Assembly: GCA_049700215.1 (NCBI GenBank)
Contig: JBNAVT010000001.1
Location: 61,016 to 125,015, forward strand
DNA length: 64,000 bases
Source: Thermoproteota archaeon
Lineage (GTDB): Archaea; Thermoproteota; EX4484-205; JAAOZP01
Direction: 5' to 3'
A program made the translations under genes and the position numbers. The notes under the pieces were generated by a model, which was not told where the DNA came from, did not search any database, and saw nothing but the letters and a program-made list of their open reading frames with translations. Positions within the stretch are counted from its first letter, which is position 1. Every line of letters begins with the position of its first letter. Shown piece after piece: positions 20,065 through 63,990 of the stretch.

Positions 20065-20242
20065 AAGAGTTATGTACATTCTATAGATAAGGTCAAATAA
20101 GTACTATATTTTCACTTTAATCGGTATTGTCACACTCATCTCCGAAAGCAATGCCATTGTCCCTACCTGCCTCAACATAATCCATGTAAATAATGTTCAC
20201 ATCCCTGTCCATATGGTGCGCATGACCCTTATTAGCGCGTGC

Positions 20243-20328
20243 TTTCCCACAGGGCTAGAGCTTTAAGAGCATTCGCCTCATGGTTTCTTAATGAGAAAAT
20301 CGCGCGCGCTATCCTTTTTCAACCGTAA
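20243..20328 (+). pseudogene. Displaced alternative 3' end of rdgB
   Basis: Reads SHRARALRAFASWFLNEK versus SHRARALRSFASWFLSRH in rdgB. Confidence 0.8.
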
Positions 20329-20755
20329 GCTTAGCGTGGGGCCCGTTGAGAATGATCTTCAACTTGTTGAGCATCTTCCTGCCGATTACAATATCCTCGA
20401 CGAGGTCTGGGGCAGACAGGGGTACAAAGATTTCGTTCAAACCCAAGTCGATTATACGGTTAGCTTCTTCAGATATTAGGAATACTGGGAGCTCGAAAAC
20501 TTCTCCCTTAATCAAGTGTCCAGGAGCCTCCATCTGCCTTGTGGAGACCGGCTTAAGGTTAAGGAGGAACTCTGCCAGTTCAAAGTTGGAGTATAAGGCC
20601 CCGTCGAAACCCGTGTCGACCAGACCCTCCACTATGGCGGCTTTACGTAAGTCATGCCTGACTATGAGAAGGCTCATCACAGGTATATCGGGTAGTTTAA
20701 AACCGTCAGACAGGACCCCGTCTTCATGATATTTGAAGCTTATCGATGTCGACAA
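20309..20755 (-). CDS. Clan AA (retropepsin-like) aspartic protease
   Basis: GLVDTGFDGAL and IVIGRKML motifs. Confidence 0.75.
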   Translation of the reverse strand: MSTSISFKYHEDGVLSDGFKLPDIPVMSLLIVRHDLRKAAIVEGLVDTGFDGALYSNFELAEFLLNLKPVSTRQMEAPGHLIKGEVFELPVFLISEEANRIIDLGLNEIFVPLSAPDLVEDIVIGRKMLNKLKIILNGPHAKLTVEKG

Positions 20756-21011
20756 TTCTGAACGACCCCGTCTTCACCCTCCCCATTCTAACCGATGGTC
20801 CCCTTGGGCTAACTCGTCCTCTAACTCTCCAGACGACCTTAGGATGAACATCCGGTTCCTCCTCATCCGGTTCCAATCCACGAAGATACTCCTCGACAGC
20901 TTTCCTCACAAGGGTTGAAACCTTCAGATCGTTTCCTCTCGCAGCCTCCAGTAAAGCCTTAGCTAGTTTCTCGTCAAGCGATACAGTGATACGTTTTGTC
21001 ATAAGATTCAT
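20724..21011 (-). CDS. CopG/ribbon-helix-helix protein
   Basis: KRITVSLDEKL...VSTLVRKAVEEYL. Confidence 0.8.
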   Translation of the reverse strand: MNLMTKRITVSLDEKLAKALLEAARGNDLKVSTLVRKAVEEYLRGLEPDEEEPDVHPKVVWRVRGRVSPRGPSVRMGRVKTGSFRIVDIDKLQIS

Positions 21012-21178
21012 ACTTTTATGATATAATTTAAACTTTTAACCTCCCATTAACACAGGCTTCTGTAGTTCTTCTGGCTATGCTTACTATAAGCAATAGCTTG
21101 TCTGCATACCTTGAGCTTAGGATTTGTTTCTAGAGAAGCTTAAATAGGGGGGTTGCAGGAGAAAGCTGGGCTTAAAGA

Positions 21179-21619
21179 TTGGCTAGGATGCATAGTCACA
21201 AGAAGGGTAAGTCGGGTTCGCGGAGAGTAGTGTATAGCGGGGCTCCGCCATGGTTATCATTGAAGCCCGAGGAGGTTGAGGAGCTTGTGGTCAAGCTGGC
21301 TTCAGAAGGATACGGGCCTTCTCAAATAGGGTTGATACTGAGAGACTCGTACGGTATCCCCTCCGTCAGGAACATAACGGGTAAGAAGATTGCGAGAATA
21401 CTTCTTGAGAGGGGGGTCAGGTTCTCCAGGACGGAGGACCTGGATGGGCTTGTGGCTAAGGCTGAGAGGATGGTTACTCACTTAACCAGGAACAGGTCTG
21501 ACCGTTTCAACGTTCACAATCTTCAACTGGTGGAGTCTAAGATTAGGAGGCTTGCCCGTTACTATTCTAGGAGGAAAGTGCCTCTTCCCGACCTGAAGGT
21601 TCTTGAAGCCAAGATATGA
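21179..21619 (+). CDS. rps15: 30S ribosomal protein S15 (S13e)
   Basis: MARMHSHKKGKSGS, IGLILRDSYGIP, ESKIRRLARYY. Confidence 0.97.
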   Translation: MARMHSHKKGKSGSRRVVYSGAPPWLSLKPEEVEELVVKLASEGYGPSQIGLILRDSYGIPSVRNITGKKIARILLERGVRFSRTEDLDGLVAKAERMVTHLTRNRSDRFNVHNLQLVESKIRRLARYYSRRKVPLPDLKVLEAKI

Positions 21620-61390: not shown

Positions 61391-61975
61391 CTACAGACGT
61401 GTATATTCCGTGAATGCTAAAGCATCCTTCGCAGCCATGTATAGGAAGTCCCCCAGATCACCGTCCCACGCGTGGCCCCTCTTCTCAGCCTCAGACTTGA
61501 AAATATCGTATATGAAGAATAGAGCGGGGTTAACCCTTATTTTGATGCTTATCTTGTCCTTATGAATCTCCTCAAGCTCGCCCATGGGCACGCGCGCGCT
61601 TTTGACCACGTTCCCTTCATCCTTATCGGTACTGCTTTGAGTGGCGTTAGTTGGTGGTGACGGAGGTGGTTGCGTGCCAACGTCTTGGCGAGCGTGGCCA
61701 ACCATCCTCTTATAAAGCTCATCTACGATGCTTGTTACAAGTGCACCCGAGTCGAGAGGAGGAGTATTAGGGTTATCACCCTTCGACGCAGAAACCGCTT
61801 TTTCTATGCTCGATGAGTGCTTTATTCTAATGTTGCCATAGAGCCCATTTTTGTACGGAATTCGGCACCGCATATTTCGCACTTGAAAGGCATTAATACT
61901 GCTTATTCTCAGGTTGTTTAAAAACCTTTCTTTAAGCACTTTTCCAGTACATTTTAAGCACGCTTTAGTAAACAC
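61391..61975 (-). CDS. Hypothetical protein (real start probably downstream of the annotated one)
   Basis: ORF track; the 5' part runs through the repeat array, while the C-terminal half looks protein-like. Confidence 0.4.
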   Translation of the reverse strand: MFTKACLKCTGKVLKERFLNNLRISSINAFQVRNMRCRIPYKNGLYGNIRIKHSSSIEKAVSASKGDNPNTPPLDSGALVTSIVDELYKRMVGHARQDVGTQPPPSPPTNATQSSTDKDEGNVVKSARVPMGELEEIHKDKISIKIRVNPALFFIYDIFKSEAEKRGHAWDGDLGDFLYMAAKDALAFTEYTRL

Positions 61976-62127
61976 GTTTTAAGCACTTCTTTAAGCATAG
62001 TTGAAGCGTTTCCCAAGCATATTCGAAACGTAAGCTACTTCAAAGCACTTTCCAAGCGCATTTTCAAGCACAAGTGCATAAAGCAAATGCACAAATGAAG
62101 CACATTTTAAAGCACATTTCTAAGCAC
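61934..62127. repeat. Phased array of about 14 AAGCAC-like hexamers
   Basis: AAGC(A/G/T) at 61934, 61956, 61981, 61993, 62004, 62015, 62032, 62043, 62054, 62066, 62081, 62098, 62110, 62122. Confidence 0.75.
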
Positions 62128-62232
62128 TTGCTAGGTACATAATAGCGCGCGCTAGGCTCTCCAAGTATTCTCAGAGTTGGGTAGCGAGAAGAGGCTTATA
62201 CTAATCGTCTTGGAGGCGCGCGCCAATAGCGT

Positions 62233-62514
62233 GTGCACGGCGGCTTAAGGCGATGGGTTGCGATGGCTAGGAGGAGGGGGTTTACGAAGGGGGATGCGAA
62301 CAGGCTGATAGATAGTGTGCTACACCCGTTCATGAAGGGTGAGGCGAGGATACCGGTCATGGTGCTTGACGCGCTGGCGCACGCGATGGTTGAGCAGAAC
62401 CCTAGAAAAAGCATGATGAAGTTCATGAGGTACACGGCGCCGAAGCTTCTGGATGAGGCCGCTAAGAGTAGGCGGGGAGGACGGGCTCGCAGGCATAAGA
62501 GAAAACCACCTTAG
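62233..62514 (+). CDS. Small basic hypothetical protein
   Basis: MARRRG... with Arg/Lys-rich termini. Confidence 0.5.
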   Translation: MHGGLRRWVAMARRRGFTKGDANRLIDSVLHPFMKGEARIPVMVLDALAHAMVEQNPRKSMMKFMRYTAPKLLDEAAKSRRGGRARRHKRKPP

Positions 62515-62610
62515 AGTTTATCAGGCTCTTTTCCTTCTTTCTCACCAACAATATTTAAAGCGTATAGAGGTGCTCCGGACCGTGATTATGGTCAATAGTG
62601 CATACTACAT

Positions 62611-63990
62611 TTATTCATCAGCGCCTTGTGCTAAACTGTAGTCCCTATCAATAAGTAAGGAGTGGCACACTGGACACCAGATAGAGAGCGGGAGCGCTAT
62701 GGGGTATTCATCTAAGCTTTTCGGCGAGTCGACTGCAAACCGCGTGTGGCAATTTGAGCATTTGTAGGTCCTGAAGCTGGGCATCAGACGGTCAATGATC
62801 ACTTTTTTAGCCGCCTCGACGGCGCTTGGCGACGGCTTTTCTAAGACCCACTTCCACGTTCGCTCCAGGAAATCCTTGAGTTGTTCGATGTCCCCTGGGG
62901 TTTTGGCGTTCATCAGCGTGACTATCGCCTTGCTCAGCTCTATCTCTTCGTGCCGTTTCTCCACGCTTTCTTTCAACGCTTTCTCTTCTGCCGTTAAGCC
63001 CTTTATGCTGTTCTCCAACTCCTCCTTGTGCTTCTCCAACCCCTCGATTTCCCCGGTCAGGGTAACAACTTTAGCCTCGGCATCTTTACATCGCTGTCTC
63101 AGATTCTCAACCTCTTTTTCAAGCCTCGATTTTTCCGCGTCGAGTCTAGAAACCCTTAGTTTAGTATCCTTCTCCGACTCAGCTAAAGCCATTAGGCTTC
63201 CGTTTAAAGTTGATAGTGATTTTTCAAGGTCCTCCTTGACCCTTTCCCGGCTTTTGATGGTTTCGTTTAAACTTTCGAGTTCAACCCGCTTTTTACCCAC
63301 CTCTGAATTCAGGCCGTTCAGCTCCCTCTTTTTAAGCGCTATCTGCCCATCCAGCTCGGCAAGACCCATGCGCCGATAGAGGTTCTCCAGCAGGGCTTTG
63401 ACTCCGCCATAACTTTTAGTATGCATGCTGAGCGACTTCAGCGTGGGTAGGTCATATCCCAAACCCGTAAGCTGTCTCACGGCCTCTATCTCCATCCTGA
63501 GCCTTGAAGCCTCCTGTCTCGCCTTTTCAAGTTCCTGCCTCTCCCCCTCTAACCCCTTGCATAATCTCCGGAGCGTTTCAGCGTCTTCATTCAGTTTTCT
63601 AACCTCCTTTTCCAGCACCTTCTTTCTTTCTGCCAATGACTCTGTTTCAGACAATTCTTTTACAATGTTCTCCGCATCCCCACCCGTCTCCTCCACGTTT
63701 TTAAGCAGGGCTTTCACGCGCCGAAGGTTCTTCACATCCAGCCCGTACTCCTTCAGGAAATCCCTAAGCCCCGTGTACTCGTTGAGCTGCTCAACCGTCA
63801 CCTGCTTGTCTCTGAGCGCGCCCTCCTTCTCCTTCCTTATTTTTCTGATATCCTCCTCAAGCTTCCTCTCCTCCTCTGAGAGCGCCTTATACTTCGTCAG
63901 CAGCTCGTCGTATTCCAACCCGGTCTCCTCTCTCAGCCTAGAGAGCGCGCGCGCTTTAGCCGTGGGTAGTTCACGCGAATTCAGCCCCAT
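62611..63990 (-). CDS. Long coiled-coil protein with C-terminal Zn ribbon (may extend beyond the window)
   Basis: Extended heptads; CSNC...CPVC. Confidence 0.75.
   Translation of the reverse strand: MGLNSRELPTAKARALSRLREETGLEYDELLTKYKALSEEERKLEEDIRKIRKEKEGALRDKQVTVEQLNEYTGLRDFLKEYGLDVKNLRRVKALLKNVEETGGDAENIVKELSETESLAERKKVLEKEVRKLNEDAETLRRLCKGLEGERQELEKARQEASRLRMEIEAVRQLTGLGYDLPTLKSLSMHTKSYGGVKALLENLYRRMGLAELDGQIALKKRELNGLNSEVGKKRVELESLNETIKSRERVKEDLEKSLSTLNGSLMALAESEKDTKLRVSRLDAEKSRLEKEVENLRQRCKDAEAKVVTLTGEIEGLEKHKEELENSIKGLTAEEKALKESVEKRHEEIELSKAIVTLMNAKTPGDIEQLKDFLERTWKWVLEKPSPSAVEAAKKVIIDRLMPSFRTYKCSNCHTRFAVDSPKSLDEYPIALPLSIWCPVCHSLLIDRDYSLAQGADE

Follow-up and report, generated by a model that had tools for sequence, protein, structure and literature searches.

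The 64,000-nucleotide stretch of DNA analysed here (the window, by which we mean the whole stretch) comes from a Thermoproteota archaeon of a hot spring and carries, like the remainder of its genome, many copies of a short palindrome, A(GC)nT, mostly in the form AGCGCGCGCT. We find that these palindromes sit at junctions where DNA has been lost, gained or replaced, and we propose that a clade-specific activity writes them as filler in the course of end joining, so that they remain as mutational scars, a reading to which we assign a probability of roughly one half. Direct support comes from (I) the position of the word at breakpoints, (II) its absence from the ancestral allele, (III) its independent recurrence, (IV) its restriction to a clade, and (V) its neutral decay. 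The source assembly (G000) is Brockarchaeota-like and comprises 2,089,643 bp in 85 contigs with 49.2% G+C and an estimated completeness of 94.6%; its relatives are metagenome-assembled genomes (MAGs) from short reads.

AGCGCGCGCT is the commonest 10-mer of G000. Counted against an order-3 Markov model, A(GC)nT occurs 372 times at n=2 (520 expected), 53 times at n=3 (24), 118 times at n=4 (1.1) and 33 times at n=5 (0.05), with 2 sites each at n=6 and n=7, and the excess begins sharply at n=4. Words of the same length in other phases or with other flanks are scarce (T(CG)4A 1 site, T(GC)4A 2, A(CG)4T 2). Within the window, GCGCGCGC is present in 11 copies, against a mean of 0.63 and a maximum of 2 in 100 dinucleotide-preserving shuffles. 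Analysis of 165 runs of exactly GCGCGCGC reveals the consensus T-A-(GC)4-T-A, with A at position −1 in 138 and T at +1 in 137 of the 165 runs, and a less frequent outer pair of T at −2 (89) and A at +2 (92); beyond TA...TA no position is conserved (A37, C39, G36 and T53 at −3).

Comparison with the closest species, G002, of which 1.85 Mb (about 85%) was aligned to G000, places the runs predominantly in DNA that the two species do not share. In fact, 62% of G000 aligns to G002, and 243 of the 274 runs of at least 8 bases fall in the unaligned portion. The bias is seen both in non-coding DNA, where 20 of 167 runs are aligned versus 44% of bases, and in open reading frames (ORFs), where 11 of 107 runs are aligned versus 65% of bases. 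Defining a collinear gap event as the interval between adjacent alignments that share contigs and strand yields 147 events with 588 edges, and a run of at least 6 bases lies within 10 nt of 61 of these edges. The same count gives 4, 3, 1, 0 and 1 in the conserved flanks at distances of 50, 100, 200, 300 and 400 nt, and 20, 19, 12, 5 and 4 inside the gaps at the same distances. When the flanks are extended base by base, a run starts no more than 6 nt from the last shared base at 35 of 294 edges, and in 28 of these 35 it is directly preceded by A. The runs are thus concentrated at indel and replacement breakpoints relative to the sister species, in line with the proposal of a first-pass annotation of the window that the palindrome marks rearrangement junctions.

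Simple indels, in which one allele measures at most 20 nt and the other at least 100 nt, reveal what stands in the joint. Among the 45 such events, the short allele has no more than 2 nt, or an overlap, in 22, just 1 of which has a run; in the other 23 it carries 5–19 extra nucleotides, and in 12 of these cases an intact run of 6 or more bases makes up the addition. By eye, at least three more of the 23 are one-letter variants of it (AGCGCACGCT at C17:19799, TAGCGCGAGCGCTA at C65:4078 and TTAGCGCAC at C2:1992). We therefore find that filler, where present, is usually this word. Smaller events of the same kind occur in aligned spacers, either as pure insertions of about 10 nt (C4:31518, C16:46610) or as patches in which 17–45 nt have been replaced by A(GC)nT (C24:3426, C16:17918, C4:86433, C1:53564).

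Five events could be polarised by outgroups, and each is a loss of 284–784 nt from a real gene, with the palindrome now occupying the site of the missing DNA; no GC run is found at the ancestral endpoints of these events. At C3:49686, TAGCGCGCGCTA in G000 takes the place of a 284-nt part of an aldo/keto reductase gene present in G002, and G009 is contiguous throughout (87%). At C5:43516, 464 nt correspond to A(GC)5, with G009 and G007 contiguous, and at C13:40908, 784 nt correspond to (GC)5, the segment being covered by one alignment in G007 and G006 and by two in G009. At C13:38865, 332 nt are missing within a GH31 gene, and G009 and G007 match the first 180 of the 332 nt (query extent). A decaying GNAT acetyltransferase gene is particularly informative: in G000 a loss of 320 nt leaves TTA[GCGCGCGC]TAA, while G011 and G006 share a common deletion with other endpoints that reads ATA[GCGCGCGC](C)AAC. 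G009 carries a third deletion, with an ATGC microhomology and no filler, and G008 a fourth, also without filler. Since the endpoints in G000 differ from those in G011 and G006, the same word was written at least twice independently at one locus. The annotation had offered filler from end-joining repair as one of its alternatives, and this alternative fits: the palindrome replaces deleted gene DNA, is missing from the pre-event allele in the sister-species alignment, and arose twice independently in one pseudogene.

The same events bear on the opposite order of cause and effect, in which a pre-existing site would have produced the junctions, be it the core of a recombinase (integron-like), a GCGCGC restriction–ligation site, or 8–12 bp of microhomology used for template switching. 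The clustering of the palindromes (53 of 214 neighbour distances are below 500 nt), the resemblance of some mosaics to shuffled cassettes, and the recurrence of a palindrome-bracketed fragment of the window (61203–61367) at other palindrome-bearing places all speak for such a site, and GC-rich palindromes, once present, could serve as secondary hotspots. However, the ancestral alleles of the five polarised events and of the small patches lack the site at either endpoint, and 12 bp is far below any known core site. Recombinase presence does not follow the motif either. Protein families were searched in the 17 genomes of the genus and, for some, in five (G000, G002, G008, G011 and G003). Tyrosine recombinase genes (PF00589) number 0, 1, 6 and 5 in G000, G008, G002 and G011, which hold 118, 88, 70 and 3 motifs, respectively, and 0 in G003; the profile detected members in all 14 control genomes and in three of four relatives, and none in G000. 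The sole serine recombinase (PF00239) found is a broken G000 gene with 4 in-frame TAG stops (C19:11332–11562), within an 1858-nt insertion. A C5 methyltransferase (PF00145), as a GCGC-type restriction system would need, occurs among the 17 genomes only in G001 and G004, both motif-free. We thus regard a pre-existing exchange site as quite unlikely, and the recombinase or cassette site envisaged in the annotation fits poorly with a site-free ancestral allele and with a genome, G000, that is richest in the motif yet has no tyrosine recombinase.

Placement relative to genes is equally skewed. Of 339 GCGCGCGC sites, 202 lie wholly outside ORFs, corresponding to 0.81 per kb outside and 0.066 per kb inside, a 12-fold difference; together with the excess in DNA unaligned to G002, this gives statistical substance to the earlier remark that the palindromes fall almost only in accessory or intergenic DNA. 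Spacers with a run have a median length of 330 nt (138 spacers), versus 84 nt for those without (1342 spacers). None of the 20 tRNAs parsed contains a run.

An extragenic word of this kind could be a functional element under selection: it might terminate transcription, bind a chromatin or regulatory protein, or resemble the REP and HIP1 words, and its presence at junctions would then follow simply from spacers being home to both. Its higher density in convergent (0.96 per kb) than in divergent spacers (0.51 per kb) speaks for such a role, as do the 11 of 163 distances to a gene 3′ end that fall below 5 nt; the median of these distances, though, is 129 nt with a wide spread, and neither a T-tract nor a stable hairpin is required. 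G000 and G002 are 90–95% identical, and A/T-flanked copies in spacers are rarely intact in both although their flanks are conserved; the runs that both species retain lie in coding DNA and are not flanked by A/T. No copy of A(GC)4T is intact in both G000 and G002, and therefore none could be a template gene. The runs also sit in long, non-conserved spacers, arise by insertion, are, unlike HIP1, 12 times rarer in coding DNA, and are found inside destroyed genes; no Y1/RAYT gene accompanies them (Y1_Tnp, PF01797, 0 of 17 genus genomes, with the control genomes detected).

The copies decay in the manner of unconstrained DNA. Single CpG-transition variants (three reverse-complement pairs, 66 sites) occur at 7.7–16.3 times expectation, while transversions at the four central positions (eight variants) stay at 0.5–1.1 times. 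CpG decay, non-conservation and presence in destroyed genes together argue for neutral scars; a selected function is accordingly very improbable in our judgement, and the terminator or chromatin-site role considered in the annotation finds no support.

Could the word instead be produced by assembly, library preparation or base calling? The genomes are short-read MAGs and some runs stand 53–54 nt from contig ends, as would suit an artefact. Yet the identical junction is present in two separately assembled MAGs, G011 and G006; Logan contigs of run X1, perhaps the source sample, span window sites with 0–2 differences, and a Logan contig of a second study (X2, in which 18% of sampled window words are present) spans 57798. 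The word is enriched in seven species of the sub-clade and numbers 0 in seven others assembled in the same ways, and its decayed copies carry an evolutionary history. We consider an artefact, which the annotation had named as what would refute its proposal, hardly credible.

The contig ends bear on a further alternative, in which a cut-and-paste element that escaped assembly left the palindrome as its footprint (Tc1/mariner or IS630, giving TA + end + end + TA) or the palindrome is itself a tiny self-inserting element. The TA...TA flanks and the palindromic form resemble inverted-end footprints, pure insertions of about 10 nt exist, and runs are 4–5 times enriched within 100 nt of contig ends (10 sites versus about 2 expected), where repeats break assemblies. 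On the other hand, the sequences past the motif at contig ends all differ, with nothing shared among them. Compared with one another, the flanks of the 274 runs give only 11 BLAST match pairs, which shows that the word does not terminate a longer repeat; no repeat family, IS or MITE bears these termini, and no multi-copy element was found in G000, although MAGs may miss repeats. IS630-type DDE_3 (PF13358) and Y1 transposases are absent from all 17 genus genomes, and T at −2 in just 89 of 165 runs is not a strict TA duplication. Moreover, both halves of the palindrome are intact despite the loss of hundreds of flanking bases, and nibbling after excision would have erased a footprint. In sum, we hold a transposon footprint to be unlikely. 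We note that an alternating GC run lies 53–54 nt from the end of contigs C28 and C69 and from the start of C29 and C67; this spacing may reflect branching of the assembly graph where the population is polymorphic at the motif (a k−1 overlap).

Within the genus, the strict 10-mer numbers 118 in G000, 88 in G008, 70 in G002, 33 in G009, 32 in G007, 18 in G006 and 16 in G010. There are 3–6 copies in G011, G014 and G013 and 0 in seven species, and a reversed control word occurs 0–3 times. The motif-rich genomes form one sub-clade with 81–95% DNA identity to the window. Across 401 genomes sampled evenly from the phylum, AGCGCGCGCT exceeds the reversed control in scattered members of two further Thermoproteota families: in f15, motif and control counts are 30/0 (G140), 35/1 (G375) and 14/1 (G380), and in f28, 22/0 (G105), 26/7 (G343), 12/1 (G388) and 10/1 (G353), with G282 also in excess. 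The motif-bearing genomes of these families have 40–60% G+C, and five inspected loci look non-coding.

We infer both a chemistry of tailing and annealing and an enzyme that would carry it out. One or two double-strand breaks would occur, and the ends would be trimmed by anything between 0 and several thousand bases. A short self-complementary A-GCGC tail would then be added to each 3′ end or, equivalently, a palindromic decamer would be placed between the ends. Tails would pair or join blunt, so that AGCGC and GCGCT give n=4, or n=5 if the tails differ by one unit, and sealing would complete the joint. The outcome would depend on the partners: (I) the two ends of one break meeting would yield a deletion or a small patch, (II) capture of a foreign or ectopic fragment would leave it between two palindromes, and (III) a reaction anchored by homology on one side and illegitimate on the other would give an insertion with a palindrome on one edge. 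Once written, the copies would be functionless and decay by C-to-T deamination at CpG. In a broader and more tentative form of this proposal, Brockarchaeia, and sporadically other Thermoproteota, might possess a dedicated homology-independent joining pathway that places the same self-complementary G/C tail on every end as a universal linker. Any two ends, foreign fragments included, could then be annealed and ligated at high temperature, and all illegitimate joints would bear the A(GC)nT stamp, a natural barcode whose CpG decay would date them. A polymerase that templates itself or uses a protein template might be the writer, a hypervariable AEP primase–polymerase encoded behind a second radA being one example.

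This AEP family was encountered as an extra gene of about 270 amino acids that matches the primase small subunit profile with borderline scores in G000, G002 (one whole, two fragments) and G008; no match was found in G011 or G003, where absences from a borderline profile are insecure. The gene overlaps the end of the second radA (318–320 amino acids), as seen in G002 (L122:12951–15913, reverse strand), in G000 (C59:5559–6308 and C17:39–1062) and in a metagenome relative (L253:7652–11765). A HEPN/minimal-nucleotidyltransferase pair follows it in G002 and in the metagenome relative, and in L253 a Y-family polymerase lies upstream of radA with one small ORF between. Members of the family are present in Brockarchaeota, Bathyarchaeota and other Thermoproteota records. 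The paralog keeps its catalytic residues (invariant DxD, SGxxGFHxH and D...R motifs), and its predicted model (pLDDT 82) matches PriS best (TM 0.59–0.62), and also the polymerases of non-homologous end joining (NHEJ) 5dmu and 2iru. Between G000 and G002 the AEP is 58% identical and the adjoining RadA 90%; further allele fragments are present in G000 (C64, C69) and in G002 (C5, C63). Nine AEP-bearing metagenome loci contain 37 runs in 135 kb, with 0–1 in three of them (51 kb). The link between AEP and motif rests on five genomes and a borderline profile score, and we regard the compact primase–polymerase paralog behind the second radA as a weak candidate writer.

Other candidates do not follow the motif. 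Cas1 is found, among the five genomes, only in G000 (as a fragment) and in G008; a search of G000 and of about 85% of G002 for CRISPR arrays found none. ATP ligases number 2 in each of the five genomes and do not discriminate between them. The archaeal CCA-adding enzyme is single-copy in all 17 genus genomes, with no paralog. A 2.9-kb TGT-like element was also considered as a cause, but its matches are distributed differently (G011 has 10 versus 3 motifs, G008 3 versus 88), it is present in the motif-free G003, G004, G005 and G012, and the ends of its other copies carry no motif. This element (three genes, window 17303–20074) is multi-copy and often lies beside tRNA genes, with 0–13 matches per genome (13 in G006) and copies in G000 on C8, C19, C20 and C37 and in G002 on C38, C39, C42, C44, C47 and C50. 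In G002, an integrated element (C63:1–8760) adjoins the ortholog of window 10121–17234 and encodes a 966-amino-acid Prim-Pol, a tyrosine integrase and an AEP fragment.

Several points weigh against the filler proposal. Only 42 of the 147 events have the motif on at least one of their four edges, and the outer edges of the large private blocks of the window (27093, 42104, 55290 and 56692) are without a run, so the motif is not at every joint. G011, at 85% identity, belongs to the motif-bearing sub-clade and has only 3 strict copies. Polarity is settled for five events only, and at C2:10561 the long allele, a multi-copy gene, leaves it ambiguous. No enzyme was identified: Ku, PolX (thumb) and reverse transcriptase (RVT_1) are each found in 0 of the 17 genus genomes, and Prim-Pol (PF09250) only in the integrated element of G002. 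We know of no end-joining system that writes a constant sequence, and the chemistry is therefore without precedent. The comparison itself covers only about 85% of G002, its breakpoint edges were taken from BLAST local alignments, and its ORF calls are crude (greedy longest-ORF, at least 80 amino acids, so that ORFs make up 88% of G000).

Within the window, an alternating G/C core is present at all 17 positions that the first-pass annotation had listed, and 14 of them are clear; of the others, 10824 is the short form TAGCGCGCTA, and 54424 and 59881 are weak or degenerate. Copies with one C-to-T or G-to-A change are found at 20233, 34448, 57798 and 61588. Three blocks, none with a run at its outer edges, are private with respect to G002 (20075–21131, 27093–42104 and 55290–56692), and the part from 57.5 to 64 kb was compared with relatives by sequence search instead of the G002 alignment. 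The palindromes and the features they adjoin are as follows, with the strand given where one applies.

10824..10835, short form GTAGCGCGCTAC (n=3), in G002-aligned DNA, where G002 has GGTAGCGCGCCGC at the same place; either an old copy common to G002 or chance.
17303..17348, forward strand, 3′ end of the resident Ham1/ITPase gene (16789–17370), 83% identical to 20243–20288.
20233..20242, decayed copy TAGCGCGTGC abutting the 58-nt ITPase-end fragment; AGCGCGTGCT is an over-represented CpG-transition variant.
20243..20300, forward strand, ITPase 3′-end fragment of 58 nt between two palindromes, 83% identical over 46 nt.
20301..20311, CGCGCGCGCTA, to the right of the ITPase fragment.
33291..35421, forward strand, tandem duplication in which 33291–34335 is repeated at 34387–35421 with about 75–86% identity.
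34365..34375, AGCGCGCGCTA, at the joint of the two duplication copies.
34448..34462, patch GTAGCGCGCGTGCTC in the second copy, 15 nt for 24 nt of the intact copy, with matching flanks.
41293..41304, TAGCGCGCGCTC, between a block shared with G011 and G007 (ending at 41269) and the PIN-gene module 41318–42014.
54424..54434, weak, decayed GCACGCGCGGC beside a 19-nt indel; G002 has GCATGCGCAGC.
56686..64000, mosaic of 165–860-nt segments with palindromes between them; the distribution among five relatives differs per segment.
57798..57809, decayed AGCGTGCGCGGC, left border of segment 57799–58648, which is common to G002, G011 and G008.
58659..58669, TAGCGCGCGAT, 11 nt past the right border at 58648.
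59363..59373, ACGCGCGCGCC, right border (59364) of a segment common to G011 only.
59881..59896, TAGTGCGCGGTGGCTA, weak or degenerate.
61190..61203, perfect TAGCGCGCGCGCTA; homology of the 165-nt fragment 61203–61367 begins directly after it.
61373..61382, TACGCGCGCG, 6 nt beyond where the fragment ends on its right.
61588..61602, GCACGCGCGCGCTTT, on the other strand A(GC)4GTGC, a transition variant.
62143..62154, perfect TAGCGCGCGCTA.
62215..62226, GGCGCGCGCCAA, 46 nt before 62272–62475, which G008 has elsewhere.
63944..63955, AGCGCGCGCGCT, 45 nt from the contig end.

The three sites previously described as provable breakpoints (20233, 34365 and 34448) are all real. The ITPase fragment lies within the 1057-nt stretch 20075–21131, for which G002 has 123 nt, and may be a captured piece rather than a classical attR. 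The duplicated unit at 33291 (1.05 kb) consists of the last 345 nt of a gene for a 1683-amino-acid protein plus a gene for a 235-amino-acid protein; neither protein has a Pfam family, and the labels "toxin" and "orphan toxin" that had been attached to this locus are without family support there.

The mosaic comprises segments 57799–58648, 58704–59364, 59475–59683, 59974–60611, 61203–61367 and 62272–62475, compared with G002, G009, G008, G007 and G011. Palindromes at 57798, 58659, 59363, 61190 and 61373 stand at, or no more than 11 nt from, five segment borders. The 165-nt piece between 61190 and 61373 matches G000 contig C71, G007:C2 and G008:C6, and the C71 copy has no palindrome at its left end; the piece looks like a captured fragment.

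Other features of the private DNA are worth recording. The PIN-domain (VapC-like) genes 41602–42012 and 58957–59379 are cassette-like, with the motif at their bounds, and lie in small modules that occur on other contigs in relatives, and the module 41318–42014 is on another contig in G014. The 15-kb block 27093–42104 has 67–77% paralogs at many G002 loci. The block 55290–56692 is a 1.4-kb insertion (28 nt in G002) with an AAA_14/DUF4143 ATPase gene, and neither of its edges has a palindrome.

These results bear on how archaea that lack Ku join DNA ends in the absence of homology; to our knowledge, no organism writes a constant sequence into such joints. Our searches of the literature on the word, on archaea, on filler and deletion junctions and on Brockarchaeota found no published description of the motif, and the text of a Brockarchaeota paper (PMC8065059) is free of the terms palindrome, repeat, GCGC, mobile and transposition. 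If the filler proposal is true, it implies a new mechanism of DNA repair or genome plasticity, in which an enzyme adds or uses a defined palindromic linker. The genomes of the clade would then hold a readable record of deletions, captures and foreign insertions, and with CpG decay ageing each mark, it would be possible to count and date losses and horizontal acquisitions of genes directly in uncultured archaea. Because the motif is patchy, occurring in one sub-clade of the genus and in members of no fewer than two other Thermoproteota families, the gene responsible can be traced by comparative genomics, and a thermostable end-tailing enzyme with a self-annealing sequence would be of practical interest.

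Fillers at end-joining junctions are known in several forms, among them the N and P nucleotides of V(D)J recombination (produced by TdT and hairpin opening), the templated insertions of polymerase theta, and the non-templated additions of the bacterial LigD PolDom. The joints described here resemble these: bases that neither parent has stand exactly at the joint, the joining is illegitimate and often destroys a gene, and filler-free microhomology joints coexist with them. Known fillers, however, vary from joint to joint, whereas here one self-complementary word, A(GC)4–5T, recurs hundreds of times. Similarly to Ku/LigD NHEJ junctions, short additions accompany small deletions, but the added word is constant, and Ku and PolX were not found in the genus, with Prim-Pol only in G002.

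Comparison with known palindromic repeats reveals a similar mixture. HIP1 (GCGATCGC) of cyanobacteria, the subject of work by Elhai in 2015, reportedly pervades coding DNA and is said to propagate through substitution, or through a repair bias connected with methyltransferases. Like HIP1, the present motif is a short GC-rich palindrome, the most over-represented word of its genome and lineage-restricted; unlike HIP1, it is 12-fold depleted in ORFs, is inserted at breakpoints, is not conserved, and has no C5 methyltransferase in the genomes that bear it. Repetitive extragenic palindromes (REPs) are imperfect hairpins of 20–40 nt with a GTAG head and a RAYT (Y1) gene alongside. Both REP/BIME and the present motif are abundant, extragenic and tied to genome plasticity, but the latter measures 10–14 nt and is conserved over only 12, shows no preference at −3 and occurs where Y1_Tnp is absent.

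The excision footprint of Tc1/mariner and IS630 elements consists of TA, end bases, end bases and TA, a layout that likewise yields a short palindrome; the differences are the missing element, the missing DDE_3, the lack of a strict TA and the large flanking deletions alongside. Compared with an integron attC or a recombinase core, the ancestral partners have no site and recombinase presence does not follow the motif, and compared with an intrinsic terminator or regulatory site, there is neither a fixed position at gene ends nor conservation between orthologous loci.

On the side of enzymes, AEPs are a class known to tail and bridge DNA ends. In its predicted model, the compact paralog has the AEP fold and also resembles the archaeal NHEJ polymerase of Methanocella (5dmu) and the LigD PolDom (2iru), and is closest to the replicative PriS. 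The IEE protein of E. coli is reported to be an AEP polymerase that acts through microhomology-mediated end joining and promotes insertion sequence excision and deletions (PMC9943667). Two further phenomena come nearest to what we describe. Polymerases of thermophiles can make untemplated dinucleotide repeats in vitro and extend self-complementary sequence via hairpins ("doodling"; PMC13061963); unlike our motif, the products reported there are mostly AT, GT and AATT rather than (GC)n and are made in vitro. They are not known to have a link to chromosomal junctions. Finally, the amplicon junctions of human double minutes carry small palindromes that arise de novo, attributed to end joining together with an unknown activity (PMC3734650). 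The double-minute palindromes differ from junction to junction and belong to cancer cells, whereas the palindrome described here is a single sequence, carried in the germ line and spread across a clade.

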